This document shows, in pieces, positions 25,293-42,348 of a stretch of 64,000 nucleotides of DNA. Position 1 is the first letter of the stretch. Every line of letters begins with the position of its first letter. The DNA lies in the NCBI GenBank assembly GCA_018650445.1, contig JABIFX010000160.1, positions 37,052 through 101,051 of the forward strand, read 5' to 3'. The position numbers were made by a program, and so were the translations under genes. The notes below the pieces were generated by a model. The model was not told where the DNA came from. It searched no databases and saw only the letters and a program-made list of their open reading frames with translations. Source of the stretch: Fidelibacterota bacterium. GTDB lineage: Bacteria > Fidelibacterota > UBA8477 > JABMPR01.

Positions 25293-25552
25293 ACCCAATC
25301 CTTCTTACTCGCAAGAAAACATCCCTGTCAGTGCATATACTATGCTTTAAGAATACTTGCTAAGCCACCCTTCATCTGTTATCCCCAATTCTTTGTCATT
25401 TTGACAAATAGTCATGCAGATGTTTTAAATTGGTAATTAGCTCCTCTGGTACTTTCACCCCAGATTCTCCTCGTTGGTGGATTTATAATTATGAAAATTC
25501 TATAAAGACGAATCGTGTATTATTGTATCTGGCTACTTGCTGAAGTTGCTAC

Positions 25553-26296
25553 CTAGATAACAACTCCACCATCAACATTTAAAACCGTGCCATTAATATA
25601 CGAGGCTTCATCGGAGGCTAGAAAACAATAGGCATTTGCAATCTCCTCAGCCGTGCCCATTCGCTTCATCGGAACTTTGTCAGCCATCATTTGCAGAACT
25701 TTATCCGGTATTCCAGCTGTCATATCAGTTTGAATAAACCCCGGAGCAACAGCATTCACACGGATACCATCCTTGGCTAATTCACGAGCCCAAACTCGGG
25801 TCATACCAATGACGCCAGCTTTTGAAGCTACGTAATTGGTTTGGCCAAAATTACCATAGTGTGCTACCACTGAGGAGGCACTCAGAATAACTCCAGATCC
25901 CTGCTCCCGCATTACTTTCGCTGCTAGTTGTGTACACAAATAGACACCACGCAGGTTTACCTGGATGACATCATCAAATTGATCCAGCTCCATTTTCTTC
26001 AGAGTGGCATCCCTGAGAATTCCTGCATTGTTTACAAGGATATCCAGCCTATTAAATTTTTCTTTTATATAGCGAAACAATTCTTGAACCGTCTCATATT
26101 CAGCAACATTCACGAAGTGGAATACGGCACTACCTGATTCTTTCTCAATTATTTCCTGAGTCTCCAGAGCAGATGTTTCATCATAGTCGGCTATTACAAC
26201 CTGGGCACCTTCAGCAGCAAACTTGATGGCTGTTGCACGTCCTATTCCACGACCTGCACCAGTAATTACGGCGACTCTGTCCTTCAATCGAAGCAT
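25553..26296 (-). CDS. fabG: 3-oxoacyl-ACP reductase-like SDR
   Basis: TGAGRGIG, NNAG, the YVASK catalytic motif and INGTVLNVDGG. 247 aa. The symbol is family-level only. Confidence 0.75.
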   Translation of the reverse strand: MLRLKDRVAVITGAGRGIGRATAIKFAAEGAQVVIADYDETSALETQEIIEKESGSAVFHFVNVAEYETVQELFRYIKEKFNRLDILVNNAGILRDATLKKMELDQFDDVIQVNLRGVYLCTQLAAKVMREQGSGVILSASSVVAHYGNFGQTNYVASKAGVIGMTRVWARELAKDGIRVNAVAPGFIQTDMTAGIPDKVLQMMADKVPMKRMGTAEEIANAYCFLASDEASYINGTVLNVDGGVVI

Positions 26297-26338
26297 ATTT
26301 TCTTATCCCTTATGCTTTAGTGGATTATTTTCAGTAGA

Positions 26339-26374
26339 GAAAAAGAGAGCTTCCGATCTGGAAGCTCTCTTTTT
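26339..26374 (-). terminator. rho-independent terminator (symmetric)
   Basis: AAAAAGAGAGCTTCC-GATCT-GGAAGCTCTCTTTTT. Confidence 0.8.
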
Positions 26375-26388
26375 GCGAGCCTTACTGT

Positions 26389-26928: not shown

Positions 26929-26946
26929 GTCTTTCTCCTTGTTTGG

Positions 26947-27816
26947 TTATTGTTTATCTATGTAATGCGAGAGGGTGTCGTACACCGACTCGGCTGTTCC
27001 TAGATTGATATGGTTAAGACTACTGAACTGAATATTGTCTGCTCCATCAAGAATGGGGCTGTTCCGCAAATCGTTGACATTGTTGTCATTCATCAACGCG
27101 TTGGACGGGAAGAAGACATCTAGATCAGTACCGGAATATATAGTTATCCACTGGAGGGTTTCACTGTGCGGGGTCTCATCGTCCTCATTAAGCCACTGCA
27201 AAAAATCCGCCTCGGGATGTCCGAGTTCGCCACACAATCCAGATTGCTGGTTGGGACCGCAAAAGTTCACACCATGATTTGCTCCTGCAATACCCACAAA
27301 ATTCTCAACCTGATCATAATCGTCACTGTACTTTAACCAGGTCCGGGATATGGTCACACCCAGTGAATGGGCAATGATATTTACTTTTTCAGATTGTGTA
27401 TAGGCAAGAACCTCAGAAACGAATTGATCGATTTCTTCCCAGTTCCCTTCATTAGTATTGAATAAGTCCTCAGAAACCACTGCACCCAGATAGCCTACCG
27501 CCCATAGTTCATTCCAGGTGTAACCATCTTCAGCAAAGTAAGTGGCCATGGGGATCCAATTATCCGCAGTGTGCCCATTTCCATGCACGAAGACGATAGG
27601 TGTATGTGTTACTTCGCCCCAACCACCGCCCCAACCAGTAACGGGATCTCCAGAGTCGGCGTCCATGGGAATAGTAAAATCATCGGGGAATGACTCAGGA
27701 AGAAGGGCCCGGTCAGTTATTTTGTCGGTCTCAGGATCTGTGCAGCCCATGATCATGAACATAAGAAAAATTAGGCTAGGGCGCATAGTATTTGATATCA
27801 TCCGCATAGTATTCAT
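26947..27816 (-). CDS. secreted lipase/esterase (lipase class 2-like alpha/beta hydrolase), lipoprotein
   Basis: FVHGNGHTADNW and nucleophile elbow IIAHSLGV, then GIAGANHG, colinear with Bacillus LipA-type lipases. IMGC lipobox. The true start may be an internal Met (27807 or 27786). Confidence 0.7.
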   Translation of the reverse strand: MNTMRMISNTMRPSLIFLMFMIMGCTDPETDKITDRALLPESFPDDFTIPMDADSGDPVTGWGGGWGEVTHTPIVFVHGNGHTADNWIPMATYFAEDGYTWNELWAVGYLGAVVSEDLFNTNEGNWEEIDQFVSEVLAYTQSEKVNIIAHSLGVTISRTWLKYSDDYDQVENFVGIAGANHGVNFCGPNQQSGLCGELGHPEADFLQWLNEDDETPHSETLQWITIYSGTDLDVFFPSNALMNDNNVNDLRNSPILDGADNIQFSSLNHINLGTAESVYDTLSHYIDKQ

Positions 27817-29086
27817 CTACCAGGAAAGCTCCAAACCATAGCCCTGGGATTGATTCTTCAGTTCCGGTCCAGTCCGGGATAGTATAGCTGTAATCCCAAT
27901 TGCCAGTGGGCTCAGCGCCACTGAATATTTCGGTACGCATGGTCCCATCGAAGACCTCCAGCACCAGATTGAACCATTGATCGTAAGTTATCGCAGGCAT
28001 GGCTCCCCAGGCTGGGATGGATGCTTCAGGTGCAAGTGCTGCACCAAACCATGCAGATACCCGGTTACGTCCCGGTCCATATACCAGATAATAAGGACTG
28101 GCAGCGCCTGAGTAGTACTGTGTGAAAATCACCAGAGATTCAGCAGTAGTGCTGGCTACTGGATCGTCCATACCCTTTATCCGCATTTGAATTCTAAAAT
28201 TTGAATTTGTAAGCATGCCGTCACCAGTAGGCCACCCATATTCTGAATCATAGGTCGTGCCCCCATAGGTCATTATCAGGAGTTGTCGATTGGTGAAATA
28301 GGCATTACTAGGTTCTTTGAGACGTAATACAGGATTTCCATTATCATCCACAATAGCGGGTCGGCCAGTTGGAGGACCAGCCGCCGAAGTGTCAGACTCC
28401 AATTCTTTATTGATCTGCCAAATCATTCCATTATTTCCCGTGAAATAATAGTCTCCAATCGTAGTCGTATCCACCGAGCTAAAATCCTCTGTGAAGGCTA
28501 TATCCCAAATGTATATCCGAATGGGATCACTCTCCAGGTTTCCCTGCATAGCACGCACAGTTGTTTCTCCCTTGGATACGCCAGTCAATTCACCACTAGC
28601 AGCAGCCAACAACAATGATTCGTCGGCTGAGATCCAATTTGAGATGCCCAGCCCAGGGATGGTGGTCCCCAGAGCATCTATAATAGTACCAGCTAACGTG
28701 ATCGACTGTCCAACTACGACTGCTTCTGAAGAATAGTCGAGTTCAATCTGGTCTGGATCGCCGGCTACATGAAGGACTGCATCATTACTTTCAACACCTT
28801 CAGCCTGGGCAGTTATCACGACACCTTGTGCCATGGCCAAACCCGTAGCCAGACCATTATCATCGACTTGAACGGCGGTCGGATCAGATGAATACCAGGT
28901 GAATTCAACACCAGTAACCGGATCGAGATCAATATTTAAGGCTTCTCCGGCAAACTGTACGGTCTGACCAACAGCTATCACTGATTGGAGAGGTGTCACT
29001 GCAATGACATCAATTGCTACTACCTCTTCAGCGTCCTCTTCACAAGAGAGTAGCAGGATAAGCGAAAGTAGAATAATTTTTTTCAA
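27776..29086 (-). CDS. lipoprotein with tandem bacterial Ig-like (Big_2) domains and an uncharacterised C-terminal domain
   Basis: Lipobox LLLSCEED. Two Big_2-like repeats of ~80 aa (VTPL...VGQTVQF...; ...VGQSITLAG...). Confidence 0.55.
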   Translation of the reverse strand: MKKIILLSLILLLSCEEDAEEVVAIDVIAVTPLQSVIAVGQTVQFAGEALNIDLDPVTGVEFTWYSSDPTAVQVDDNGLATGLAMAQGVVITAQAEGVESNDAVLHVAGDPDQIELDYSSEAVVVGQSITLAGTIIDALGTTIPGLGISNWISADESLLLAAASGELTGVSKGETTVRAMQGNLESDPIRIYIWDIAFTEDFSSVDTTTIGDYYFTGNNGMIWQINKELESDTSAAGPPTGRPAIVDDNGNPVLRLKEPSNAYFTNRQLLIMTYGGTTYDSEYGWPTGDGMLTNSNFRIQMRIKGMDDPVASTTAESLVIFTQYYSGAASPYYLVYGPGRNRVSAWFGAALAPEASIPAWGAMPAITYDQWFNLVLEVFDGTMRTEIFSGAEPTGNWDYSYTIPDWTGTEESIPGLWFGAFLVDEYYADDIKYYAP

Positions 29087-29097
29087 TTAAGACCTCC

Positions 29098-30087
29098 TTA
29101 GGGTAGCGCGTATCGCATTGAGTAGGATAGAATACCTGAAAAATCCTGCATTGCTGAATATGCGAAATCGATGAATATATTTTTTGCCATTATTCCACAT
29201 CCCAATGACCATGATTCTTGCTCATAGTTTAACCCATATCCACTTCTGATTTTGAGATGATTTCCATATTTATATTCGGCTCCAATATGCAATCGCGGAC
29301 TGTAGTCTGAAGGGTGATTGGCTTCAAAAGCCAACAGTAGCGAGTGGGAGCCGGAATGCCAGACTGAACCAGCTGTACCCAGACTGAATGATACTGGCAA
29401 ACCTACTTCTCCATAAGAAAGTTCAACTTCCTCTTTGAGATTACCTTTCACGCGAGTGTCCAAGAAAGTGCCATCAAATACCAGGTCGGGTCCAAAATTG
29501 CGTAATACCATATAGAAGCGGAGGTCACGATAACCGACCCAATAGAAAGAACCTATATCTATAGCCATTCCCTGGGTATAAAGATCAGCCACAGATTCTC
29601 GAATGTATTTAACTGTTCCACCAAGAGCAAACCGATCGGAGAATGCCCTGGAGATAGATAATCCTAAAGCCAGATCCTGGTAGCGGAAGCTTTCACCTGT
29701 ACCCCTCGGTTGTAAAGTGGTTGTTTCCGTCATGGGAGCAGTCGTGACCAGGCGCTGGCTAATTCCTACACCAAGCCCTCCAAGCGGGAAGCTCACAGCC
29801 GCAGCCTGGTGGTGAATATCAATTAGCCAACTCGAATAACTTATAAATGTCTCAGTGGATTCCTCCCAACCTAGCAAAGCTGGATTCCAGAATGTCGCAG
29901 AGGCTCCCTGTTCCATGCCTGAATAAGCTTTGCCCATACCTTGTGCCACAGCGCCAGCAGGGAGATTAAGGAACAATGCACCTGAAGTTCCTACCTTATT
30001 GAAACTGGATTGAGCGTAGAGAAATGATGAACAGCAAATAAGGATCGCCAGCTTCCTGATCAGGTTAATTTCAAATTTGAGTATCAT
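29098..30087 (-). CDS. PorV/PorQ-family outer-membrane beta-barrel protein
   Basis: Signal peptide. GAVAQGMGKAYSGMEQGASATFWNPALLG is the family signature, followed by alternating beta-strand pattern. 4-nt overlap with the upstream cargo gene. Confidence 0.6.
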   Translation of the reverse strand: MILKFEINLIRKLAILICCSSFLYAQSSFNKVGTSGALFLNLPAGAVAQGMGKAYSGMEQGASATFWNPALLGWEESTETFISYSSWLIDIHHQAAAVSFPLGGLGVGISQRLVTTAPMTETTTLQPRGTGESFRYQDLALGLSISRAFSDRFALGGTVKYIRESVADLYTQGMAIDIGSFYWVGYRDLRFYMVLRNFGPDLVFDGTFLDTRVKGNLKEEVELSYGEVGLPVSFSLGTAGSVWHSGSHSLLLAFEANHPSDYSPRLHIGAEYKYGNHLKIRSGYGLNYEQESWSLGCGIMAKNIFIDFAYSAMQDFSGILSYSMRYALP

Positions 30088-31721
30088 CGCTCACCCTTAA
30101 TCACGACAAATTTTCCGTTCGATTCATCGCCTTGAGGTGTGACTACCCGAAACAAATACAACCCACTGGCAACTGACTGCCGATTCAATGATAGCAGGTC
30201 CCAGTCTGCCCACCCAGAGCCTATATGATCTATTCTGGCAACCAGATCACCGGCAAAGCTATGAATGTAAATTGTGCACTCAGCAGGTAATTGGGTGAAA
30301 TAGATGCGATTCTCATAGTCAAGTGATTCCCAGTTGGCACCACCTCGATATGGATTGGGAACCACTATCACCTCGTCTATTTTTGTGACCGCTTTTCCTA
30401 CAGGCCGGACAGCATCCAGAGTGCGGTTGAGTCGGCCCCATTTCCCACTTTCATTTCCAGATTGGTCAATGCTGGTTATGGAATAGTATAGAGGAAATCC
30501 CGATCTCCCAATATCAACATATGTGGTATTGCTGGTATCAACCAACACTTCCCAGGGACCGATGGGAGAGACGTCACTTTTGTAAAGACGATAGGATTTG
30601 AAATCTAAAGCTTGGGCAGCCGAATTATTCCAATTTAGTTCCACCACGCGACTAGAGACATTGATATCCTCTATTTCAGGTGCAGCTGGAGGACTTTCAG
30701 ATTCTGGGATCGTAAAACCATTCGCGGCCAGGGAGCGAATAGATTCAAGGTTCTGCAGAGATTCCTCAAGACCTTCACCATATATGACAGCCATTACAAA
30801 TTCCATGGATGCGCCAGCTTGTAGTTCAAAAGAACCAACGGCGTTCACAATACTCCAGGGACCCGGGCTACCGGTTGCCGTAGTAATACCGCTTTTGATT
30901 TTCCGGATCATATCCTGCCGACCTGTTATGGGATTGACCATTTGGTAATAATGTGCTGTGGTCCAACTCTGAGAAAGATCCAGCCCTGACCCCAAGTCGG
31001 TTCCCAACAAAACCTGTCCGCACAGATAGGGTGATAATCCATCATCGCCATCATCATCATACATGTATGTGAAACCAGTAGCGCTGTGATATGCAGCATA
31101 ATCATCAAGATCCTTGTAACTGATCCCACTGGCACCTGCATCTACAGGCAAGTGTGAACCATAATATAGATCTGTTAAATCACTGCTGCCTGTATTAGTA
31201 AAGCGGTGGGAAATAACTACCATGTCATCATAATCTGGATGATTGTACGCACGGATTCTGCTAGTGACCTCTACGGAGAGTGATCCCAGCGCAAATTGCC
31301 CAAAATTTGATGTTGCTGTTAAATTTAGTTGGTTAACTCCATCACCCTCATCCTGCCATGATTCAAAAAGACCATCCGCATTCTGCCAGCTATAATCGAG
31401 TTCATTTCCCAAGGTACCACCATATAGCACAAGAGTATCAGGTCCGTTAACACATGAGAAGAAATTTGATTGCTCAAGGATGTAGAAATCTTGTGCACCA
31501 CCAGGGTATTCAAAAGCTCCCATATAACCATAATTAGTGATTGTTGGACCAATCCAAAGCTTGCCAACTTCAATCCTGCCTTCGCTGGCTGCCCTGACAT
31601 CCTGTATCATAATCGATGACAGACCTGATAGGACCATTATGTACACTAAAACATGACACAGACTTGCAGAGATCCTGTTCTCGAATCGAAAATAAAACTT
31701 ATGCTGTTGCCTAGAAATCAA
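30084..31721 (-). CDS. secreted protein of unknown function with T9SS/FlgD-Ig-like C-terminal domain
   Basis: The C-terminus VVPNPYRGG...TIYIHSFAGDLVARI...ASGLYLFRVV...GKFVVIK resembles T9SS sorting domains. The start is uncertain (31721 overlaps the TBDR stop; alternative Met at 31637). Confidence 0.55.
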   Translation of the reverse strand: MISRQQHKFYFRFENRISASLCHVLVYIMVLSGLSSIMIQDVRAASEGRIEVGKLWIGPTITNYGYMGAFEYPGGAQDFYILEQSNFFSCVNGPDTLVLYGGTLGNELDYSWQNADGLFESWQDEGDGVNQLNLTATSNFGQFALGSLSVEVTSRIRAYNHPDYDDMVVISHRFTNTGSSDLTDLYYGSHLPVDAGASGISYKDLDDYAAYHSATGFTYMYDDDGDDGLSPYLCGQVLLGTDLGSGLDLSQSWTTAHYYQMVNPITGRQDMIRKIKSGITTATGSPGPWSIVNAVGSFELQAGASMEFVMAVIYGEGLEESLQNLESIRSLAANGFTIPESESPPAAPEIEDINVSSRVVELNWNNSAAQALDFKSYRLYKSDVSPIGPWEVLVDTSNTTYVDIGRSGFPLYYSITSIDQSGNESGKWGRLNRTLDAVRPVGKAVTKIDEVIVVPNPYRGGANWESLDYENRIYFTQLPAECTIYIHSFAGDLVARIDHIGSGWADWDLLSLNRQSVASGLYLFRVVTPQGDESNGKFVVIKGER

Positions 31722-34491
31722 TATTCATCCCCATTCTGATCTCCCGATGAGGACCAAAAACAAAGGGGTCGTCCAGTGGTCCCTGGTATTCCTCGGGGTA
31801 ATCCAGCAGGTGATTGACAACTGGAATCCTACGATTTTCGCCATTATCAAAATTCATAATATTCACATTGTCAAATAAGTTCATGATAAAGATATATACA
31901 TTCATATTTACAGGACCCACGCTAAACACTTTATTGGCTTTCAGATCGGTAGTCGTAGTGGCTGGCAAACGTTGGTTGTTTTCAACTGGCAAAAGTGATT
32001 CCTGATAGCCAGTGTATGGATAACCAGAGCCATAATTATATGTTAATGTGATTCCAGAGTGGTCCCTGAATCGATAATCCAGGTTGGCGGCGAAAGTATG
32101 CCGTTGATCCCAGTTCAGATAGAATTGCTGAACGGGTTCCAGCTGCCCGCGACTGAATTGCCTTAAGAATCCATCATGATAATCCGAAGTCTTGCCTCTG
32201 GCTATCATAAAGGAATATGATAAAATCGCACTCAGCCCCCCGGTGGGTGCCGGTCTTTTTACCAACGAAAACTCCAACCCTTTTACAGTTCCCCAGGCCA
32301 CACTATTGTTCATGTAAAGGGTCGGTAAACGGATCACCGACTCATCAGCTTCAGCAATTTCCAGGAAATCGGGATCATTCAGACTGTTGATTACTGTTGT
32401 TTCAACAAGATTGGATATGTCCTTGTAAAAAGCAGTCATATCGAAAACAAAATCTCCTGGCAGCACCTGTTTTAAACCGATCTCGTACGAAATGGTTTTT
32501 TCTGGATTCAGATCTGGATTGCCATACAGGGCCAGAATGTCATAGGAGTAGTTATAATTGCGGTATAAGAGATACCAATCCGGTATTTGATAGAAGTATC
32601 CATAGGTAAAATGGAATACACTTTTGTCAGTGATAGGATGTGAAACTCCTATTCTGGGACTAAAGAAATGTTTTACCTGTGCTTTCTTCCAGGGTGCATC
32701 AGGATTCGGTGTGGGAATATCCCCATCGGGTCCCAGCCAGTATTCACCATCTGTCAAATCGGGACCAATATTTCCCGGATCCAGATAGGGACGGTAGGGG
32801 TCAGAAGGCAATGATGCATCGGGATCAAAAACTTCATATCGTAAACCTGCATTCATTATAAAACCTTCAAACTCGATTTTATCCTGCAAGAAAATGGCAC
32901 CCAACTTGGGTTGAATCGAGGGTAAGCGCATATCAGATTCATCGATCCCGTGGGCAAAGGTGAAGGGGAAACCACGGTATGCTAGCACGGCTTGGTAGAA
33001 TAGATCCCATATATTCAACTCAGTGCCCCACTTAAATTCATGAAATTTATTAAGCTGATAGGTCATATTCCATTTCAGCAGTAGATTTTTTAGATCCTCC
33101 TCCCGGAAGAGGTTGTTGTCACCATCAATAATGAATAATGTTGAGTCCTTATAAACAAAACCAATATCAATTGCCTCAGGATTATCAACATCCACATTTT
33201 TTATATTCCATTGTTCATTTTTTGTGATATCCCACCATTTTCCTGATTGGGCAGCTCTGTAGTAAGTCCGGCCAGCACCAAATGTCAGGTTGTGGAATAA
33301 TTTGTTTGTCAGAGGCTGGTTCAGTACCACAGAAAACTGATCAACATTGCTGATCCTGTGCTGAAAGGTCTCCGGGATAAACTTCCTGCGGACATCAAAA
33401 AGATCATATTCTCGTTCTGTACGTCCCACACTCATGGTGAGGCTGGCATTATTAAATATTTGCCAACGTATCTTTCCATTAAGCACCAATTCAGAGTAAT
33501 TGTCATGGGTGTTTTCACGATTAAGTATGCCGTTTTCAGCGCCGGTGTACTGGACACTTGTATTGAAGGTTCCACCCTGGCTGAGTGGTAGTGGACCACC
33601 CAGATTAAATCGATAACGCCGATGACCAGTTGAGTAATTGTAGTTTGTTTGATCCTGATAATATTCATCCCCGTAGAGCAAATACGTATCTGAGCGTTTT
33701 CGCTCCAGCAATAGTTCTGGAATTGGACGACCCTCATCAACATTCAGCTCCGATTCAACATCAAAGGAGAATTCATAATGATCTGGATTGCCGACCTTGG
33801 TGTGGATCTCAACTACTCCCGAAAGCGCATTTCCATATTCAGCATTAAAGCCACCGCTCTGAATGGCAATTTCAGAGAGGGATCGATTATTGAGGGCCAA
33901 TACAGACATTCCGGAGAAAGCTGTTCCATAATTCGGTTCTTGGAGAGTTACTCCATCAACCTGGAATTTGACTTCGCCAGCCCTGCCACCCCGCAGGTGA
34001 AATCCTTTGGCGTCTCGAGTGAATCCGGGATTCATGGCCAGAATTCCCTTGTAGTCATCTACTGGTAAAGATTCAATCTGTTCTGCATTGACGAAATGAG
34101 AGGAATAAGTAATATCTTTTTGGATCAGAGGTTTGGAGGCATATATCGTCACCTCTTTGCCTTCCAGTGCCTCAGAAGCCAGAGTTATATCCATGCGAGT
34201 GGTCAGTCCGTGAGCCACTTCTATATTGTAAACTACTGTAGATGTGTAGCCTATCATCATGACTTTCATCTCGTAAATACCAGCAGGAAGATTTATGATA
34301 ATGAAATCTCCATTAACATCTGCAGCGGCTCCGTAGTTTGTGCCTACGAGAATCACGTTCGCACCCACTAATGGTTGATTTGTCTCAAATTCCGCAATCT
34401 GCCCCATGATTTTGCCAGCTTGTTGAGCGAAGGAGCTACTTAACAGCAGCAATGAAAGGCTAATCTGGGCAATCAGGCGAATCATTCCCAC
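31711..34491 (-). CDS. TonB-dependent receptor with N-terminal carboxypeptidase-regulatory-like domain
   Basis: Signal peptide, CarbopepD_reg-like segment (VGANVILVGTNYGAAADVNGDFIIINLPAGIYEMKV), plug, long beta-barrel and a terminal ...NIDF aromatic residue. 926 aa. Confidence 0.85.
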   Translation of the reverse strand: MGMIRLIAQISLSLLLLSSSFAQQAGKIMGQIAEFETNQPLVGANVILVGTNYGAAADVNGDFIIINLPAGIYEMKVMMIGYTSTVVYNIEVAHGLTTRMDITLASEALEGKEVTIYASKPLIQKDITYSSHFVNAEQIESLPVDDYKGILAMNPGFTRDAKGFHLRGGRAGEVKFQVDGVTLQEPNYGTAFSGMSVLALNNRSLSEIAIQSGGFNAEYGNALSGVVEIHTKVGNPDHYEFSFDVESELNVDEGRPIPELLLERKRSDTYLLYGDEYYQDQTNYNYSTGHRRYRFNLGGPLPLSQGGTFNTSVQYTGAENGILNRENTHDNYSELVLNGKIRWQIFNNASLTMSVGRTEREYDLFDVRRKFIPETFQHRISNVDQFSVVLNQPLTNKLFHNLTFGAGRTYYRAAQSGKWWDITKNEQWNIKNVDVDNPEAIDIGFVYKDSTLFIIDGDNNLFREEDLKNLLLKWNMTYQLNKFHEFKWGTELNIWDLFYQAVLAYRGFPFTFAHGIDESDMRLPSIQPKLGAIFLQDKIEFEGFIMNAGLRYEVFDPDASLPSDPYRPYLDPGNIGPDLTDGEYWLGPDGDIPTPNPDAPWKKAQVKHFFSPRIGVSHPITDKSVFHFTYGYFYQIPDWYLLYRNYNYSYDILALYGNPDLNPEKTISYEIGLKQVLPGDFVFDMTAFYKDISNLVETTVINSLNDPDFLEIAEADESVIRLPTLYMNNSVAWGTVKGLEFSLVKRPAPTGGLSAILSYSFMIARGKTSDYHDGFLRQFSRGQLEPVQQFYLNWDQRHTFAANLDYRFRDHSGITLTYNYGSGYPYTGYQESLLPVENNQRLPATTTTDLKANKVFSVGPVNMNVYIFIMNLFDNVNIMNFDNGENRRIPVVNHLLDYPEEYQGPLDDPFVFGPHREIRMGMNIDF

Positions 34492-34535
34492 ATGCCCAGA
34501 GATGTCGATTGATTCGTATTATCCATAAATATTGC

Positions 34536-36044
34536 TTATCCCTGCTCAGTAGCGAGGTGGTTGGTTTTGAACAATCGTATGAGGTAATATAATCCCATCA
34601 CCAGGAGCCCAACGATGATTCCGTAAGCGGAAGTGAGCCCAGGATTGATATAGTCCGCAGTGGTTAGTATACTGAATTCGCCATACCTGAAAACTATATG
34701 AGTCATGATTGATAAGAGGGAAGCCGCCAGAATCCATTGCTTATTCATAGCCTTGGAGAACATACCGAATAGAAGTGGGATGAAGGTGGCGTTGAAAAGT
34801 GCATAAACCCAGGTTTGAGCAAATACTGCCACAGAGAATTCCTTGAAATAATGCTGGAGTAAACTGAGCACCAGAGTGAGACCCGCCAAACCTATCATGC
34901 TGAATCTTCCAACCCTCAAAGCCTGACTTAAGCGTTGCTCTGAACTCTTATCCTTCAAATGTTTCCGGGCCAAAACCAGGTAAAGATCATTTGCGATAAT
35001 AGCTGATAGGGCTACCAATATTCCATCCAAAGTGGACATGGCTGCTGCTAGAATAGCGATTGAGATAAATACGCCTATGACAGGTGAAAATGATTGTAGG
35101 ATATAGATGGAAGCCACCTGGTCCACATTTGCCATATACTGCGGACCGAATTTTACCCGAGCGAAAAGGCCAACCAGGAGCACCAACGAGAAAATAAATC
35201 CCATGAGGACAGCAATAGTGAGGTACTTGTTCACATCACGCTTATCCTTCACATATACAGCTTTGATCAGAAAATGGGGTTGGACAGCCAGGGCAAATCC
35301 CACGATGAAATTTGCCAGGAAAACTTCAAAGAAATTTCGAAAAAAGAGACTCTGAGGATTGATAATCTCAGTCAATACTGGATTCTCGGCGCTGAGGGCG
35401 TTGAACAAGCCTGCCTTAAAATAAGGAATACCTGAAATCACCAGAACGATAGCCACAGTAAACATGATTCCACCCTGTATCGTATTGGTATAGGCATGGG
35501 CAAAGGTTCCACCAAAACTGGTATAGGTAAATACAAATAGGATCACAAAAAGGAGGGTGATCTCAAAATGATAATCTGGAAATATATTATGAATTCCGAG
35601 AGTGAAATCGATGAGCATGGCCGAACCATAAGAAATGAGAACCACCATCGCAATGAGCAGAAGATTGACCAGGGCAAAGAATACTGTAAAACGCTGATCC
35701 TGGAACCGCTCGCCAATCCACTGGGGTACTGTTAAGGATTGTGAACGCCAGCCAGCTTTTCGAAAGCCCTTGGACAGGATGATGATTCCAGAGAATAATC
35801 CTAGTCCTGCCGCCACACCGTAACCCATAATTGCAGATAGACCAAATGCATAGACGATACCTGGATTAATTATAAATGTGGCCGTGCTGGTCATACTGGC
35901 TGCTAGCGCAAAGGCTACAATCCAGGGATTCATCTTTCTGTCACCTACAGCATAACTGCTTAGTGACTGTGTTTTTTTATTACCCAAATAGGCCAGATAA
36001 ATGGTCACAAATATATAGATCAGAAATATAATCCATTTGATCAT
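34536..36044 (-). CDS. sodium:solute symporter family transporter
   Basis: About 13 hydrophobic helices. 502 aa. SSF-like pattern (GDRKMNPW..., ...AAAMSTLDG...). Confidence 0.75.
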   Translation of the reverse strand: MIKWIIFLIYIFVTIYLAYLGNKKTQSLSSYAVGDRKMNPWIVAFALAASMTSTATFIINPGIVYAFGLSAIMGYGVAAGLGLFSGIIILSKGFRKAGWRSQSLTVPQWIGERFQDQRFTVFFALVNLLLIAMVVLISYGSAMLIDFTLGIHNIFPDYHFEITLLFVILFVFTYTSFGGTFAHAYTNTIQGGIMFTVAIVLVISGIPYFKAGLFNALSAENPVLTEIINPQSLFFRNFFEVFLANFIVGFALAVQPHFLIKAVYVKDKRDVNKYLTIAVLMGFIFSLVLLVGLFARVKFGPQYMANVDQVASIYILQSFSPVIGVFISIAILAAAMSTLDGILVALSAIIANDLYLVLARKHLKDKSSEQRLSQALRVGRFSMIGLAGLTLVLSLLQHYFKEFSVAVFAQTWVYALFNATFIPLLFGMFSKAMNKQWILAASLLSIMTHIVFRYGEFSILTTADYINPGLTSAYGIIVGLLVMGLYYLIRLFKTNHLATEQG

Positions 36045-36059
36045 AGTAAAATCCTCACG

Positions 36060-37046
36060 TCACCAGTTTAGCGCAATAGCACCCATGGCATACCCACCAC
36101 CGGAACCCACCAGTAGGACAAGGTCTCCATCCTTAATTCGTTTCGACCTGGCAACCTCATCAAGAGCCATAGGAATGCAGGCAGATCCGGTATAGCCAAA
36201 GTGATCCATAATAGTATGGGTTTTTTCCCAGGGGAGGCCTAGCTCATCCATCACTTCTCGGATGGTGTTGATGTTGATTTGGGTAAAAAGAACGAAATCA
36301 ATATCTGATAAAGTTTTGCCAATCCGGTTTAGGATATCCTTAATCAGAATGGGCCAATGTGTGGCATTAGTGTCCTCAGGAAATTTTTTCACGAAACGCA
36401 CGAGATGTTCGCCGCGCTCTATTCGTTCCGGAGTAATTGGATTTAGAGCTCCTCCAGCATAGATGCCCATAAAATCGTGATAGCTACCATCCGCAATGAG
36501 CTTGGAGGCCAGAAATCCTGGTTGATCTCCAGCTTGCATCACCACTGCTCCAGCCCCATCAGCAAAAATGGTGGCCGTGTATCTATCGTGAAAATCAAGA
36601 AAGCGAGTCATTCCATAAGTAGCCACCACCAGGATATGTTCGTATTGGTCATCACTGCTAATGTATTTTGCCGCGATATCTACACCGGTGACAAAGGCGG
36701 CGCAGGCACAATTTACATCAAACGTTCCAGCGTTCTTGGCTCCCAGGAGATGTTGGACTTTCGAGCAGGTTGCCGGCGAAATAGTCTCAGGTGTATCAGT
36801 GGCGACGATGAGGAGATCAAGATCCTGGGCTTGGCAACCTGCTTTCTCCAGGGCAGCCTGAGCAGCTTGAACAGCCATGGTCGCTGGACTTTCATCTTCA
36901 GCCATTATCCTGCGTTCAAGAATATTTAGTTTTCCCCCTACAAATTCCTCAATGTCTTCCTCCAGGATTGTCGAAAACTCGGCATTCTTCATAATCCGTT
37001 CAGGGGCATAGAGACCCGTCCCGATGATCCGGGCATGGCGTTTCAT
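36060..37046 (-). CDS. KASIII (FabH)-like enzyme with non-canonical active site
   Basis: Colinear with E. coli FabH over its full length. Cys115 is retained (FDVNCACAAF). FabH PHQAN is FTQIN here (Thr255, codon 36282-36284), and HGNTSAAS is FGYTGSAC here (Tyr285, codon 36192-36194). Confidence 0.8.
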   Translation of the reverse strand: MKRHARIIGTGLYAPERIMKNAEFSTILEEDIEEFVGGKLNILERRIMAEDESPATMAVQAAQAALEKAGCQAQDLDLLIVATDTPETISPATCSKVQHLLGAKNAGTFDVNCACAAFVTGVDIAAKYISSDDQYEHILVVATYGMTRFLDFHDRYTATIFADGAGAVVMQAGDQPGFLASKLIADGSYHDFMGIYAGGALNPITPERIERGEHLVRFVKKFPEDTNATHWPILIKDILNRIGKTLSDIDFVLFTQININTIREVMDELGLPWEKTHTIMDHFGYTGSACIPMALDEVARSKRIKDGDLVLLVGSGGGYAMGAIALNW

Positions 37047-37984
37047 AGTGTTTCCTTTACAAATGCTTCAACGAGACGGTGGAATTCAATAGGGTGTTCC
37101 AGCATTGGGAAATGACCACAACCATCTATTGTTTTTAGTGTAGCACCAGGGATGAATTTTTGCGCTTCATCGGCAACTTTCAAGGGAATCAAGGGATCTT
37201 CTTTCCCCCACAACAGCAAGGTAGGAAGCTGGTGTGCTCCAATTCGATCACGTACATTGGTTTTCAACATCAATTCCATGGCCTGCACCATCGCATGCGC
37301 ATACAGCCGGTACTCTTCACCACCTTCTGTCAACAAGGCTAATCTGCGCAAGGCATAGGTTTCCATTTCCGGGCTCCAGGTCACACTGGTGTTGTGATAG
37401 TTCTGCATGGCCTTTTTTATACTGGTTTTAAGAATGGTTTCTATGGTAAATGCGCTCCGCATAGCCGTAGTCATGAATGAATTGAATTTCTGAATACCTG
37501 CCGGGCTAACCAGAACCATGGAATTGACCCGTTCCGGGCGGGCAGATGCATAGACCATGCTTACATAGCCGCCATAGCTATGACCAATGAGATTGGCTGA
37601 CTTTATATCAACTTTATCAAAGAGGGAATCGAGGAGGTCCACCAGGAACTCTTCTGAAAACATGATTTCGGGTTTATCAGATTTACCAAAACCCGGATAA
37701 TCAAGAGCGATGACCCGGTTACCCGAGACAAAAAGCGGATAAACTGGATCAAAGTTTAATAAATCGGAAGCCTGCCCATGGAGGAAAACTAGGGGTGGAC
37801 CACTTCCTGAATCGATATACACTATGTTATGACCCCTGAAATTGAATGATTGTTCTTCGAATGGATACTTCATCTGATTAAATGCTAACCCTTCTAATTT
37901 TACTTCAGTGCTTTCAGCAGAATCCGAATTACACTGAGATATCAGCAGACCCGCTATCACAATAAAAACAGCTCTGAAACCCAT
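37043..37984 (-). CDS. alpha/beta hydrolase, secreted or membrane-anchored
   Basis: HG oxyanion motif (FLHGQ), nucleophile elbow GHSYGG and C-terminal GCGHFP. ATG 37984 forms a TAATG overlap with the regulator stop and is preferred over TTG 37999. Confidence 0.75.
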   Translation of the reverse strand: MGFRAVFIVIAGLLISQCNSDSAESTEVKLEGLAFNQMKYPFEEQSFNFRGHNIVYIDSGSGPPLVFLHGQASDLLNFDPVYPLFVSGNRVIALDYPGFGKSDKPEIMFSEEFLVDLLDSLFDKVDIKSANLIGHSYGGYVSMVYASARPERVNSMVLVSPAGIQKFNSFMTTAMRSAFTIETILKTSIKKAMQNYHNTSVTWSPEMETYALRRLALLTEGGEEYRLYAHAMVQAMELMLKTNVRDRIGAHQLPTLLLWGKEDPLIPLKVADEAQKFIPGATLKTIDGCGHFPMLEHPIEFHRLVEAFVKETL

Positions 37985-38439
37985 TATACTGCCTCCCAAT
38001 CATCGATAAATTCTTTGAACAGTCTATGGAGACGGGAATGGAATTCAAACATGCGTTGGAAACGTCGTTGGACTATTGGATCGAGCTCCTTGTTCTCCAG
38101 ATATGTTTTCGAAATATTTTGATTCTCTCCAATTAGAGCAAGATTTCGACGGGCTGTCATAGATATTGGGTGATCCGTGATCTCATAATAGACCTTCCGG
38201 TCCCGAGGTTTTTGAATGCTTCGCACCAGTCCGAATTCCTTTAATTGACGTGTTTCCACGCTCACGGGACCTTTGCTGGCCTGTAGAGATTCAACGATTG
38301 AGTCCAGTGATAGTGGCTCAGGGCTTGAAATCAACAAGCCTACAATTCGACCCCGAATCCGAGGTTGACCAAAGGCTGCATAAGCATCGCCGAATGCGTT
38401 CAGAAGTTGATCTCGTGATTTTGATAAGATGCTATTCAT
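37984..38439 (-). CDS. GbsR/MarR-family winged-helix transcriptional regulator
   Basis: GQPRIRGRIVGLLISSPEPLSLDSIVESLQASKGPVSVETRQLKEFGLV. 151 aa. Confidence 0.7.
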   Translation of the reverse strand: MNSILSKSRDQLLNAFGDAYAAFGQPRIRGRIVGLLISSPEPLSLDSIVESLQASKGPVSVETRQLKEFGLVRSIQKPRDRKVYYEITDHPISMTARRNLALIGENQNISKTYLENKELDPIVQRRFQRMFEFHSRLHRLFKEFIDDWEAV

Positions 38440-38443
38440 ATTA

Positions 38444-40213
38444 TTATCCTACTGTTTCCGATATCGCATCCGTATGGACAATATATAGGTCGTCAAGCTG
38501 ACTGCGAAATTGTTCGATGGCAGCTTTGCGGCGAAGCTTTAAAGCTGCAGTCAATAATCCGTTTGCAGGTGAAAAATGTTGATCACTTATATGGAAATAT
38601 TTGATCGTCTCAAATGAAGGCAGTGTATTATTGACCTGATCAACAGCTTTTTGAATCAGTTTGATCACTTCAGGTCGATTGACAATGCTTTTCCACTTGG
38701 CGGTGTCAGGGTCAAGAGCTTGGAATTTTTGGCGGATGAAATTTTCATTTAGCGTGATCAAGGCTACCAAGTATTTCTTCGCATCGCCATAAATGACTAT
38801 GTGCTCTATTTCGGGGTGATCGGTGAACTTTCTCTCGATATTCTGCGGGGCAATATTTTTCCCACCACTAGTGACGATGATATCCTTTTTACGATCAATT
38901 ATCTTCAGGAAGCGATCATCAATCCAGATGCCAAGATCTCCAGTCTGGAACCAGCCATCAGGAGTGAAGCAGGCTTTGGTTGCCTCTGGATCTTTGTAGT
39001 ATCCGCTAAAAATATTTGCACCTTTAGCCAGTATTTCACCATCTGTGGCAAGTTTTAATTGGACAGAAGGAAAGCGTTTGCCAACAGAATCAAAACGATA
39101 GTCGTCCTTATGGTTCATGGTTAAAGTGGGGGAGCATTCGCTGAGACCGTAGCCCTCAGTGATCCACATACCGGATTCCAGAAAAAATTCTTTGATCTCA
39201 GTTTTTAACCCAGCGCCCCCGGACAATAGAAAGTGTAAATTTCCACCTGTCAGCTCAATCAGTTTCTCAATTTGTTCATCTTTATCATTGCTACAGTTGA
39301 TGGCATTAAGAAACAGTTTTTCATAATAAGCCGGGACACTCATGAAGATGTCGGGTTTTAAAACTGTTAATAGTTCCAGAATATTGATGGGATTGGCCAG
39401 ATAACTTTCAAAACCAAATAGATTTCCAAGGCCTATGGCCCCCCAGCCATAGATATGAGAGTTGGGTAACCAATGAATATCAAGGACATCTTCGGGGATG
39501 AGTGAGCCATTGACCGTTAACCAGTCGCTGGTTGAGGTTGCCAGGTTTCGATGCGATAGCGGTACACCCTTTGGATCACCAGTGGTTCCCGAGGTATAAA
39601 TCATATAAGCAATGTCATCAAATTGCGGAATTCTTGCCAGATCCTCAATCAATCCGGGAGTGCTGTTAGTATGCGTTGCTCCTGCTTGTGAGAGTTCTTC
39701 AAAGCAATAAATTGGCAAGCTTGTCACACAATCTTTGGGGTCGCCCTGAAGCAGAATCAGCTGTCGTAACTTTGTGGATTCCAATCCAGCGGCTATAAGT
39801 CGATTCGCCATATCGACTGAATCGAGGATCAGAAGCTGCATATCTGAATGATTAATCATAAATAGAGACTGTTCGATGGTATTCCCGGCATAAATGGGAA
39901 CGAAAATTGCGGTCGAAGTCATGACCCCCAACGCAGAATAAATCCATTCGAGGGAGTTAGCAGCCAGAATGCCTATTTTATCGGGATAGCTGTAGCCCTG
40001 ACCGTGTAAAAATGTAGCCACCCCGGACACCTTGCGTCTATATGTATCCCATGTAATGGCTTCCCAACCGTGTTCGGTAGGGTTTCGCCAGCGGACTTTG
40101 TCTGACCATTGCTCAGCAGCTTGCATGAACAACTGGATTGAGGTTTGACCTTCAACCGCAGGTAAATATTGCATATATTTGAATATAAGGTACGTTTGAA
40201 AAATACAAAACAT
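38444..40213 (-). CDS. long-chain acyl-CoA ligase (AMP-forming)
   Basis: AMP-binding motif YTSGTTGDPKGV, plus GYGLSE, TGDLG and SGGKNI. The start may be the internal Met (MQYL...). Confidence 0.85.
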   Translation of the reverse strand: MFCIFQTYLIFKYMQYLPAVEGQTSIQLFMQAAEQWSDKVRWRNPTEHGWEAITWDTYRRKVSGVATFLHGQGYSYPDKIGILAANSLEWIYSALGVMTSTAIFVPIYAGNTIEQSLFMINHSDMQLLILDSVDMANRLIAAGLESTKLRQLILLQGDPKDCVTSLPIYCFEELSQAGATHTNSTPGLIEDLARIPQFDDIAYMIYTSGTTGDPKGVPLSHRNLATSTSDWLTVNGSLIPEDVLDIHWLPNSHIYGWGAIGLGNLFGFESYLANPINILELLTVLKPDIFMSVPAYYEKLFLNAINCSNDKDEQIEKLIELTGGNLHFLLSGGAGLKTEIKEFFLESGMWITEGYGLSECSPTLTMNHKDDYRFDSVGKRFPSVQLKLATDGEILAKGANIFSGYYKDPEATKACFTPDGWFQTGDLGIWIDDRFLKIIDRKKDIIVTSGGKNIAPQNIERKFTDHPEIEHIVIYGDAKKYLVALITLNENFIRQKFQALDPDTAKWKSIVNRPEVIKLIQKAVDQVNNTLPSFETIKYFHISDQHFSPANGLLTAALKLRRKAAIEQFRSQLDDLYIVHTDAISETVG

Positions 40214-40274
40214 TTATTTTTTACAGATATAGCATTCATGAAATACATTGGGTTTTCAAGAAGAAGAAGTCGAG

Positions 40275-40847
40275 TTATTTAGTATCAGATATTACTGAAT
40301 CAGCAGAAGTTTTATCTTTATTTGCTGACGGCCAGGGTCGCTGGCTTTCAGCTGCGATCCAGGCATGCACCCAGTCGGGCAATTCACCGCTCCAATGTTC
40401 ATTTGGAAATTCCTGCATGACTTCTGCAGCAGGAATCAAACCATTTTTTGATACAACACCAGCTTTAATAAGTGCTGAGGAGCAGATCGTTTCTCCCAGA
40501 CACATCTTCTGCATAAAATAGAACCAGCGTCCATCATGACCGATGACTTCGCTGTGCAATTGAAACTTTTTCCACAGGGTTATTCTACGACGGTAGCGAA
40601 TGCTGGAACCGCCCACAGCAAAGCCCCATTTCTTTTCTGAGATGAGCTTCATCAATCCGCCCCGAACTCCAAGATCATAACGCCCCAGGTCCATCAGGGT
40701 CAATTGCCGGCCGTTGTTAACCTCTCCATAGTGATCGATATCAAAGATTCCTGCACGGAGATTGAGAGTGCTGCTATCACCAAACTTCAGTGAGCTACGG
40801 TATTTGGCCGAGAGTATGGTTTTTATGGTTCTGAGATAGGGATACAT
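40275..40847 (-). CDS. hotdog-fold acyl-CoA thioesterase-like protein
   Basis: 190 aa. The ...DID.YGEVNNGR.LTLMDLGR... pattern resembles 4HBT_2-type thioesterases. Confidence 0.55.
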   Translation of the reverse strand: MYPYLRTIKTILSAKYRSSLKFGDSSTLNLRAGIFDIDHYGEVNNGRQLTLMDLGRYDLGVRGGLMKLISEKKWGFAVGGSSIRYRRRITLWKKFQLHSEVIGHDGRWFYFMQKMCLGETICSSALIKAGVVSKNGLIPAAEVMQEFPNEHWSGELPDWVHAWIAAESQRPWPSANKDKTSADSVISDTK

Positions 40848-40999
40848 GAAAGCTTCCTTTGTGAGAATTCCAGTTACTCAGACATGCTAATTCCTGGAAA
40901 CTGCTTCTCAAGAAATAAATAGGATCAATATTGATAAATTAGCTGAGATGATAAATCGAAAAGGAGCTTTTGAAGCATAAAAGTAGGAATCATCTATGC

Positions 41000-41500
41000 C
41001 TAAATCATTGCCAGCAGCTTATTCTTTTGCTTCTTGTACTCTTTTTCTGTGAGGAGTTGTCTGGTGAGCATCTGGTGCAAAGCTTCGATTTGCCCAATCA
41101 CCTCTTCAGTAGTGGCTTCCTGGGCATCTGGATTCATGGACATGCCAATCCGATTGAGGAGTGTCTTTTTGGCTCTTTCATAGTCTTTTTCACTTATCAC
41201 ACCGCGTGACATCATACGATTCAAGACAACAATATCTTCGGTCACAATTTCGGCTGTGATGGTAACCAGATTAGTTGGATAGGTGGTCGTCGATTGGGTG
41301 GTGACCATGACAGGTCTATAAGAATAGCGATAATATCCATATGCTGAATAGTAATTGTTGTAGCGATGGGGATAATAGGAATGATGATAGTTTCTGATAG
41401 GTCTGTGATGATGTCTTCTTGAACGGGGTCCCGCCTGGACAGTGACTGAAAAGATAAGTAAAAGGATTATAAGTTTACTAAATTTCATTTTGCACCTCAT
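41000..41500 (-). CDS. secreted protein with His/Tyr-rich low-complexity region and two SHOCT-like motifs
   Basis: Signal peptide (the MKFSKLIILLLIFSVTVQA start is probably Met5). RSRRHHHRPIRNYHHSYYPHRYNNYYSAYGYYRYSY, then GVISEKDYERAKKTLL and LLTEKEYKKQKNKLL. Confidence 0.6.
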   Translation of the reverse strand: MRCKMKFSKLIILLLIFSVTVQAGPRSRRHHHRPIRNYHHSYYPHRYNNYYSAYGYYRYSYRPVMVTTQSTTTYPTNLVTITAEIVTEDIVVLNRMMSRGVISEKDYERAKKTLLNRIGMSMNPDAQEATTEEVIGQIEALHQMLTRQLLTEKEYKKQKNKLLAMI

Positions 41501-41538
41501 TCTATTTAATCCCTTTGACCTTATAAGTTCCTGATTGG

Positions 41539-42348
41539 TTAATTTGGACCAAGCTCGAGACTGCTTTGGTAAGCTCGACGGGCAATATGAGCCCCCCCTA
41601 GAGCACCCACAGTTTGCGGGTTTTCAGGAATATTCAAAGTCAACCCCAACTTCTCCTCCAACAGCACAACCAGACCCCTATTATGAGCAACGCCTCCTGT
41701 CAGGGTCACTTCGCCTTCAATGCCAATACTGGCAACCATACTCCAGATTCGATTCACAATGGAACGTTGTAGACCGTGGACGATATGTTCACGTGGGGTA
41801 TGTTTGGCCAGGAGAGAAATGACTTCGCTCTCAGCAAATACGGTACAGGTACTGCTGATAGGAGCTGACTCTCCCTCGATATTCAAGGGGCTGCTCAATT
41901 CATCCAGGTCTAGTTCCAGACGATTGGCCATGACCTCAAGAAAGCGACCTGTCCCAGCGGCACATTTATCATTCATGGTAAAATCTAGCATACGACCATG
42001 TGAGTCGATTTGGATCACTTTGCTGTCCTGACCACCTATGTCTATCACCGTTCCCGTCTTGGGAAAGAGTTGATGAGCCCCGACCCCATGGCAACTGATC
42101 TCAGTCGTTTTTCCCGTGGCAAAAGCCACTGAAGCACGCCCATAACCCGTAGCAGTGATTGCTGTGATGACCTCCCTTGAGAGATCCGCCAGCTTTATAG
42201 CGGAGTCAAAAGCCACCTCAGCTGCTTCAGACCCATTTACGCCAGTGGGGATTACAGTTTCAGACAGGAGTTTTCCTGAATGGTCAATAATGGATACATC
42301 GGTGCTGAGAGAGCCTACATCCACACCGGCAAAATAGAGATCAGCCAT
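41539..42348 (-). CDS. BcrA/BadF/HgdC-type ATPase (activase of 2-hydroxyacyl-CoA dehydratase-like enzymes)
   Basis: GVDVGSLSTD, IDIGGQDSK and KCAAGTGRFLE. ATG 42348 overlaps the upstream stop (ATGGCTGA) and is preferred over the listed 42423. Confidence 0.85.
   Translation of the reverse strand: MADLYFAGVDVGSLSTDVSIIDHSGKLLSETVIPTGVNGSEAAEVAFDSAIKLADLSREVITAITATGYGRASVAFATGKTTEISCHGVGAHQLFPKTGTVIDIGGQDSKVIQIDSHGRMLDFTMNDKCAAGTGRFLEVMANRLELDLDELSSPLNIEGESAPISSTCTVFAESEVISLLAKHTPREHIVHGLQRSIVNRIWSMVASIGIEGEVTLTGGVAHNRGLVVLLEEKLGLTLNIPENPQTVGALGGAHIARRAYQSSLELGPN

Follow-up and report, generated by a model that had tools for sequence, protein, structure and literature searches.

What chemistry is left to an enzyme with the fold of β-ketoacyl-acyl carrier protein (ACP) synthase III (KASIII) that keeps the nucleophilic cysteine of its family and lacks the histidine and asparagine of the canonical triad? 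This question is raised by a gene on the minus strand, at positions 36060 to 37046, of a 64,000-nucleotide stretch (hereafter the window) of contig JABIFX010000160.1 from a member of the Fidelibacterota (Marinimicrobia). An initial annotation, based on a manual alignment to Escherichia coli FabH, had proposed that the product, P0001, forms an acyl-Cys intermediate, does not perform decarboxylative condensation and might transfer an acyl group activated by an adjacent ligase onto an acceptor imported by a neighboring symporter. Our analysis places P0001 in a deep clade of KASIII-fold proteins sharing a Cys/Thr/Tyr pattern, and we read it as a putative non-decarboxylating acyl-Cys enzyme, acting on coenzyme A (CoA) esters in an operon for the scavenging of esters and acids. 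The gene and its key codons are:

36060..37046, minus strand: KASIII-fold enzyme of the Asp-Cys-Thr-Tyr clade, 328 amino acids, P0001 (Pfam ACP_syn_III and ACP_syn_III_C; top folds FabH/BioZ)
36795..36797, minus strand: Asp84 codon GAT, invariant in the clade (136/136; Ser, Thr, Val or Ile in canonical FabHs)
36702..36704, minus strand: Cys115 codon TGC, nucleophile equivalent to E. coli FabH Cys112 (HMMER and MAFFT alignments)
36282..36284, minus strand: Thr255 codon ACC, at the FabH His244 position (HMMER and MAFFT alignments)
36192..36194, minus strand: Tyr285 codon TAT, at the FabH Asn274 position (HMMER and MAFFT alignments)

The open reading frame (ORF) is intact, translates into 328 residues without interruption and contains both KASIII domains of Pfam (ACP_syn_III, E = 4e-23; ACP_syn_III_C, E = 3e-27). 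HMMER alignments with solved FabHs from Bacillus subtilis (8vd9), Yersinia pestis (4ylt), Neisseria meningitidis (4ryb) and E. coli (1ebl) run end to end (E = 1e-54 to 2e-50), and pair the FabH motifs pHqan, gNtsaas and aaaCagf with fTqin, gYtgsac and ncaCaaf of P0001. An independent MAFFT alignment with E. coli FabH (sequence taken from NC_000913) recovered the same register, with C112 equivalent to C115, H244 to T255 and N274 to Y285. Thus, the residue assignments of the initial annotation are borne out by two methods, its positions for the Thr255 and Tyr285 codons are exact, and the His and Asn do not reappear in P0001 through a shift of register. Against the family models of NCBIfam, P0001 scores 230.4 with TIGR00747 fabH (cut-off 292.1), 250.4 with PRK09352, barely above the cut-off of 249, and 43-76 bits with the HMG-CoA (3-hydroxy-3-methylglutaryl-CoA) synthase models (cut-offs 244-360); it gave no match to any Thiolase model of Pfam.

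Relatives of P0001 were collected by searching 5.8 billion proteins, which returned thousands, and by running HMMER exhaustively against 1.84 billion cluster representatives; the best 120 of these thousands are 54-88% identical to P0001 and 310-347 residues long. Among 254 aligned relatives, 136 display Cys/Thr/Tyr and 105 Cys/His/Asn, with the switch near 220 bits, and each pattern is uniform on its own side (136/136 clade members versus 105/105 neighboring FabHs). Since it is shared by 136 of the 254 aligned relatives, the Cys/Thr/Tyr pattern reflects neither chance nor sequencing error. In a FastTree phylogeny the smallest clade enclosing all 136 sequences has a support of 1.0, and its 9 remaining tips are mostly fragments, chimeras or near-variants. 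An alignment of 30 sequences drawn from across phyla revealed N112, C115, T255, Q256, N258, H277, Y285, T286, G287 and C290 to be invariant, and the residues that have newly become invariant in the clade are D84, S90, M146, N227, W231, G287, C290 and S315. P0001 falls inside this clade, with D84, S90, C115, T255, Y285, G287, C290 and S315 all present. As judged by alignment and tree, the Thr/Tyr substitution is a trait of the family, not a lesion, and the clade is a monophyletic, uncharacterised branch of the KASIII fold with the signature Asp84-Cys115-Thr255-Tyr285 together with Ser90, His277, Cys290 and Ser315. A literature search found no paper on a Cys-Thr-Tyr KASIII, a search for solved structures found none of a clade member (the best PDB identity is 34%, to entries that are Cys/His/Asn enzymes), and the ESM Atlas offered generic KASIII clusters only.

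The distribution of retained and replaced residues provides considerable clues regarding what such an enzyme might do. In FabH, it is the malonyl-derived enolate on which His244 and Asn274 act; acylation of the cysteine needs only Cys112 and a backbone oxyanion hole (PMC10054515). As both enolate-stabilising residues are replaced throughout the deep clade, the residues show that the family would be unable to use the decarboxylation machinery of FabH, which agrees with the earlier proposal that P0001 is not a normal decarboxylating KASIII. The clade keeps the Cys, the Gly-rich loop G316-G318 (E. coli Gly305-Gly307), N258 (E. coli Asn247), an aromatic residue at the position of E. coli Trp32 and mostly Lys or Arg at that of Arg151. 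Because the nucleophile and the Gly-rich oxyanion loop are retained, the acyl-Cys intermediate of the initial annotation is the natural reading of the site. We take the backbone of the Gly305-Gly307 loop to form the oxyanion hole for acyl transfer, and Trp32 and Arg151 to be CoA contacts in FabH. Further changes are found in essentially all members (E. coli numbering): apart from His244 to Thr and Asn274 to Tyr, these are Ser276 to Gly, Ser279 to Cys, Phe304 to Ser, Phe87 to Ser, Thr81 to Asp, Leu142 to Met, Val266 to His and Gly186 to His. The M-x-G-x-x-x-F-K segment of FabH is replaced or deleted, and the region of Gly209, Phe213 and Lys214 has given way to a conserved K-K-F-P-x-D-T-N-x-x-x-W-P motif. 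Positions lining the acyl pocket are far less variable in the clade than in FabHs, and this low variability suggests that one common acyl group may be used across it.

In FabH, Asn247 and Arg36 contact CoA (PMC10054515). Arg36 is lost from the clade along with Arg249: the latter is Ser or Asn and the former Val or Asn in the clade, as against Arg in 85/105 (Arg249) and 76/105 (Arg36) FabHs, and P0001 itself has Asn260 at the Arg249 position and Lys39 at the Arg36 position. In FabH these two arginines dock ACP. With CoA contacts kept and docking arginines gone, we infer that the clade enzyme would work on CoA esters, not on ACP. This bears directly on a possible function as an acyl-CoA:ACP transacylase that feeds scavenged fatty acids to lipid synthesis, for which one might cite the fatty-acid-type ligase, the lipase and the importers of the locus (see below), as well as the substitution by Ser90 of Phe87, the residue closing the acyl pocket of E. 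coli FabH (compare the pocket of Mycobacterium tuberculosis FabH). However, the loss of Arg249 and Arg36 led us to reject this candidate, which we regard as highly improbable, and no ACP, plsX or fab gene was found among the recurrent ORF families of 86 related loci.

The same residues weigh on the proposition that P0001 is a working condensing enzyme of the FabH type, in which Thr and Tyr substitute functionally for His and Asn. Both residues can still donate hydrogen bonds, and the match to FabH models is full-length, with a score just over the PRK09352 cut-off; however, the shortfall against TIGR00747, the loss of ACP docking and the replacement or deletion of Phe304 and the M-x-G-x-x-x-F-K segment all argue against it. 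The His244Ala and Asn274Ala mutants of FabH lose decarboxylation. Moreover, the gene lies outside a fab cluster, and the genome has a better candidate: of its four KASIII-family genes, one with Cys/His/Asn precedes a FabD-like gene, and given this combination the fabH-fabD pair is the true FabH and P0001 is not the housekeeping one. A FabH-like role for P0001 thus appears very unlikely. The other canonical (Cys/His/Asn) KASIII paralogue of the genome lies directly upstream of an acyl-CoA dehydrogenase (G000:C243:6229-9501 and C115:1136-4331, loci L088 and L089); its two copies are near-identical and located on different contigs, and may represent strain heterogeneity or assembly duplication.

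Asp84 was singled out because members of the superfamily that do not decarboxylate need a base. It was compared with one archaeal-type HMG-CoA synthase and one PksG-like HMG-ACP synthase, and by both MAFFT and phmmer the A-T-D-T of P0001 aligns with the segments carrying the catalytic Glu of these two proteins (G-S-E-S and C-T-E-S); the PDB entry 4yxt is a Glu-to-Ala mutant of exactly that residue. By alignment, the HMG-CoA synthases retain His and Asn. In HMG-CoA synthase the Glu also serves the hydrolysis step, and one might accordingly conceive of P0001 as a thioesterase, whose acyl-Cys would be hydrolysed by an Asp-activated water, or even as a hydrolytic or non-catalytic partner that merely escorts the ligase. 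Here OleA offers a parallel in that it hydrolyses its acyl-enzyme as a side reaction (PMC8180931). However, it would be futile to hydrolyse a CoA ester that the neighboring ligase has just made with ATP, the locus already has a hotdog gene of thioesterase-like type, and the invariance of about a dozen pocket residues speaks for an exacting catalytic site; we consider this possibility improbable. The OleA base itself, Glu117, sits in an E-P motif of the partner subunit (PMC8180931), which by motif mapping, not direct alignment, corresponds to Phe87-Pro88 of FabH and Ser90-Pro91 of P0001. With Ser90-Pro91 at this position, P0001 would not use a base of the OleA type.

The AlphaFold2 model of P0001 is confident (predicted local distance difference test score, pLDDT, 93.8), and allows a ranking of known systems: FabH, BioZ and PqsD come first (template modelling score, TM, 0.92 with Foldseek; Z 45.5-43.8), followed by OleA (Z 37), ChlB3 and CerJ (Z 32) and thiolases (Z 22-24) (VIA). 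The FabHs (E. coli 1ebl/1hn9, Aquifex aeolicus 2ebd, B. subtilis FabHA 8vd9) share with P0001 fold and length (TM 0.92, Z 45.5, 31-34% identity), the Cys nucleophile, the Gly-rich oxyanion loop, Asn247 and the CoA-stacking aromatic residue; they differ in that P0001 has Thr, Tyr, Ser, Ser and Asp for His244, Asn274, Phe304, Phe87 and Thr81, lacks the equivalents of Arg36 and Arg249 and lies in no fab cluster. BioZ (biotin) and PqsD (quinolone) are among the top structural matches (Z 45.5 and 43.8) and take CoA esters supplied by a ligase of their pathway; both have the Cys-His-Asn triad intact and decarboxylate a malonyl unit, whereas in P0001 both His and Asn are replaced. The HMG-CoA/ACP synthases (Staphylococcus aureus MvaS 1xpl, PksG 4yxq) have, like P0001, an acidic residue 31-32 residues before the Cys, which in these enzymes deprotonates the acyl-Cys, and their fold is related at Z ~32; however, the HMG-CoA synthases keep His and Asn where P0001 has Thr at the His position, and the sequence likeness is marginal (E = 1e-9), with FabH far closer.

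OleA likewise combines a KASIII-like fold with an acyl-Cys and a carboxylate base instead of decarboxylation, in a head-to-head, non-decarboxylative Claisen condensation of two acyl-CoAs, and the genes that accompany it belong to the same superfamilies as here (ligase, alpha/beta hydrolase, dehydrogenase). It differs in keeping His285 and Asn315, and its sequence match is confined to residues 36-141 (E = 1e-15). An Ole-like module for beta-lactones or olefins, in which a thiolase-fold enzyme, ligase, alpha/beta hydrolase and dehydrogenase act as in OleABCD, was considered and rejected: no Ole-type family was found among the NCBIfam or PDB matches of the ligase and hydrolase, the reductase of the locus is FabG/PhaB-like, Ser stands at the OleA base position, and the presence of importers and repressors indicates catabolism. 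CerJ (3s3l), ChlB3 (7eqi) and DpsC resemble P0001 in fold, in non-decarboxylative acyl transfer and in having altered triads, but CerJ and ChlB3 are structurally more distant from it than FabH (Z 32 versus 45). These enzymes keep the His, usually in a Cys/Ser-His-Asp triad, and sit in polyketide clusters; P0001 has no His at the triad position of this type, and no polyketide synthase or ACP was among the recurrent Pfam-named ORF families of the 86 related loci. Finally, the thiolases (Cys-His-Cys, EC 2.3.1.9/16) could be functional analogs, as they run non-decarboxylative Claisen and retro-Claisen reactions on CoA esters through an acyl-Cys, but they belong to another branch of the superfamily and use other catalytic residues than P0001.

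The genomic neighborhood in the window comprises a tight co-directional run (hotdog protein, acyl-CoA ligase, small regulator, alpha/beta hydrolase, KASIII enzyme and symporter), which is followed by a TonB receptor, a pair resembling a type IX secretion system (T9SS) cargo protein and PorV, a Big_2 protein and a Lipase_2 hydrolase:

40275..40847, minus strand: hotdog-fold protein (Pfam 4HBT_2), 190 amino acids, heading the run
38444..40213, minus strand: AMP-forming acyl-CoA ligase, 589 amino acids, fatty-acid type, with AMP-binding and AMP-binding_C_3 domains (Pfam, NCBIfam)
37984..38439, minus strand: small winged-helix regulator, ArsR/GbsR-like, 151 amino acids (weak NCBIfam matches; same ORF family in 8 related loci)
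37043..37999, minus strand: exported alpha/beta hydrolase with lipoprotein-type signal and GHSYGG nucleophile elbow (Pfam; nearest solved relatives BphD-type hydrolases and esterases)
34536..36044, minus strand: sodium:solute symporter (SSF), 502 amino acids (Pfam SSF; start 15 nt past the KASIII stop)
31711..34491, minus strand: TonB-dependent receptor with CarboxypepD_reg N-domain (Pfam)
26947..27816, minus strand: Lipase_2-family hydrolase, lipoprotein (Pfam Lipase_2, E = 4.5e-25)
25553..26296, minus strand: FabG/PhaB-like short-chain dehydrogenase/reductase (SDR), 247 amino acids (Pfam; NCBIfam of orthologues)

The stop codon of the hydrolase overlaps the KASIII start (ATGA). The hydrolase has a TTG start, with an in-frame ATG five codons on, ahead of a hydrophobic stretch ending in L-I-S-Q-C, and clusters with the signal-bearing type (ABH2) of other loci; given this N-terminus ending in Cys and this grouping, it probably acts outside the cytoplasm. 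Across related loci the gene directly upstream of the KASIII gene encodes a hydrolase of this exported type or else a cytoplasmic one resembling PcaD; the window has the exported type only. A search for solved relatives of the hotdog protein by sequence found none. The Lipase_2 protein has as its best NCBIfam match e_nPHAscl, the PhaZ7-type extracellular polyhydroxyalkanoate (PHA) depolymerases, at 81 bits versus a cut-off of 450, which is a weak hint. The SDR gene closes the TonB/lipase block on its downstream side, behind a gap of 92 nt, and its product is 59% identical to an SDR inside the operon of a related locus (L008); on this likeness it probably belongs to the same pathway as the KASIII enzyme, so that the functional locus may span 25553-40847. 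A scan of 25000-41600 for promoters and terminators found no excess of sites over shuffled sequence.

To place these associations in a wider context, all ORFs of the 86 related loci, 32 of which are full-length, were clustered. A ligase is encoded on the same strand as the KASIII gene in 74/79 loci and in 32/32 full-length ones; of the five exceptions, four end within ~1.5 kb downstream of the KASIII gene, and one (L079) has no ligase within 10 kb. Because two different ligase types, of about 510 and about 590 amino acids, pair with it, the clade enzyme probably uses the product of the ligase and not a dedicated protein partner. Other partners of the full-length loci are an alpha/beta hydrolase (26), a FabG/PhaB-like SDR or PhaJ-like MaoC hydratase (25), a TonB receptor (16), an importer of the major facilitator superfamily or SSF family (16) and a TetR regulator (15). 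By NCBIfam the SDRs are FabG/PhaB-like and the MaoC proteins PhaJ-like, and both act on (R)-3-hydroxyacyl thioesters. A canonical thiolase within 10 kb was found in none of the 86 loci.

These observations may be combined into a pathway in which exported esterases and the TonB receptor would process an ester-linked substrate, the symporter would import the freed acid, and the ligase would convert it to a CoA thioester, from which the KASIII-fold enzyme would load the acyl group onto Cys115. The notion that the symporter brings in a separate acceptor is not supported; with an exported lipoprotein-type esterase, a TonB receptor and a Lipase_2 lipoprotein at the locus, its more likely cargo is the acid activated by the ligase. 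For what follows acylation, we consider most likely, if with somewhat less than even confidence, a non-decarboxylative Claisen-type step, that is C-C cleavage or formation between an acyl-CoA and a 3-oxoacyl-CoA. Asp84 would be the general acid/base, like the Glu of HMG-CoA synthase, the hydroxyls of Thr255 and Tyr285 would form an enolate hole in place of His/Asn, and the FabG/PhaB-like reductase and hotdog enzymes would handle the 3-oxo/3-hydroxyacyl-CoA side. This step is favored by the carboxylate at the HMG-CoA synthase base position, by two hydrogen-bond donors at the enolate site, by partners acting on 3-oxo/3-hydroxyacyl-CoA and by the absence of thiolases from the loci.

A close rival is the plain acyl transfer of the initial annotation, in which Cys115 is acylated by an acyl-CoA and hands its acyl group on to an O, N or S nucleophile, with no carbanion chemistry; we rate it as possible, though doubtful. 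A catabolic version that fits the operon is the CoA thiolysis of an internal ester in a CoA-activated oligo-hydroxyalkanoate or similar compound, which would save the energy of the ester bond, and for which PhaZ1 offers a precedent in the CoA thiolysis of ester bonds in polyhydroxybutyrate (PHB; PMC3430594). All that cysteine acylation needs in FabH, the Cys and the backbone oxyanion hole (PMC10054515), is kept here, and Asp84, Tyr285 or His277 could serve a leaving or attacking hydroxyl. The loci have exported esterases, the Lipase_2 protein with its weak likeness to PhaZ7 and hydrolases with weak likeness to PHA depolymerases, and the (R)-3-hydroxyacyl-CoA specificity of SDR and MaoC would suit such a substrate. 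However, the esterifying homologues CerJ, ChlB3 and DpsC keep the His and are structurally further off, the structure of P0001 being nearer to FabH, BioZ and PqsD (Z 44-45.5), while the invariant Asp84 and the absence of thiolases from the loci are better explained by C-C chemistry. The transfer proposed initially is thus neither the only candidate chemistry nor, perhaps, the best. As every PHA-related family score lies far below its cut-off, PHB or PHA as a proven substrate was rejected, and a PHA-derived substrate is a lead only.

Several points weigh against the Claisen-type step. The chemistry is deduced from residues and neighboring genes only. Every C-C-forming enzyme of the thiolase superfamily known so far, HMG-CoA synthase and OleA among them, retains the His (and Asn/His) lost here, and we know of no precedent in this superfamily for a Thr/Tyr enolate hole. 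SDR and MaoC partners, though frequent, are missing from some loci, and the hotdog protein of the window is of the 4HBT_2 family, outside the MaoC family common in most other loci. The genome also encodes two ordinary thiolases, so that a second thiolase-like activity is not obviously needed; given these two canonical thiolases, six acyl-CoA dehydrogenase matches and 3-hydroxyacyl-CoA dehydrogenases, a role for P0001 as the replacement for a missing thiolase was rejected.

Hardly any enzyme of the thiolase superfamily is known to dispense with His/Asn (or His/His), and a deep, strictly conserved clade that does so, with Asp at the HMG-CoA synthase base position, would reveal a new strategy either for running carbanion chemistry on this fold or for avoiding it. 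We tentatively suggest, as a speculative possibility, that the clade embodies a new catalytic solution, with Asp/Cys and a Thr/Tyr hydroxyl pair standing in for His/Asn in a reaction as yet undescribed for this fold; candidates are a reverse-polarity non-decarboxylative Claisen or retro-Claisen reaction and a thiolysis in which CoA splits the ester bonds of CoA-activated oligo-hydroxy acids. If so, it might be a core step of ester-linked organic acid scavenging in at least nine bacterial phyla, including the abundant marine SAR406. The conserved operon, with its exported esterases, TonB receptor, importer, ligase and KASIII enzyme, points to an unrecognised route for the use of some ester-linked acid in soil and ocean. 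The window contributes an example from Marinimicrobia that combines an exported esterase, a TonB/T9SS context and the equivalence to the HMG-CoA synthase Glu.

Carriers of the clade are found in Acidobacteriota, Chloroflexota, Bdellovibrionota, Gemmatimonadota, Bacteroidota, Calditrichota, Myxococcota, Chloroherpetonaceae and Marinimicrobia/Fidelibacterota, and include the cultured Pyrinomonas methylaliphatogenes K22 and Cesiribacter andamanensis AMV16. In the databases behind the protein collection, many members are named ketoacyl-ACP synthase III or 3-oxoacyl-ACP synthase III; the name FabH appears to be wrong for this family, and such naming inflates the apparent capacity for fatty acid synthesis when metabolism is modelled from the genomes of SAR406, Acidobacteriota, Chloroflexota, Bdellovibrionota and others. 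Two rare, single-copy fusions with full-length domains were observed, one of an alpha/beta hydrolase with a KASIII domain (P0271, 624 amino acids, on the contig of L062) and one of an SDR with a KASIII domain (P0273, 594 amino acids), which may be genuine or may stem from stop codons lost during metagenome assembly. In the Chloroflexota loci L001, L015, L017, L034, L037 and L059 the Asp-Cys-Thr-Tyr gene has beside it a second non-canonical KASIII type, absent from the window, which keeps the Cys, has Val, Leu or Ser at the His244 position, His at that of Asn274 and Asp at that of Cys290, and often comes with its own copy of the ligase.

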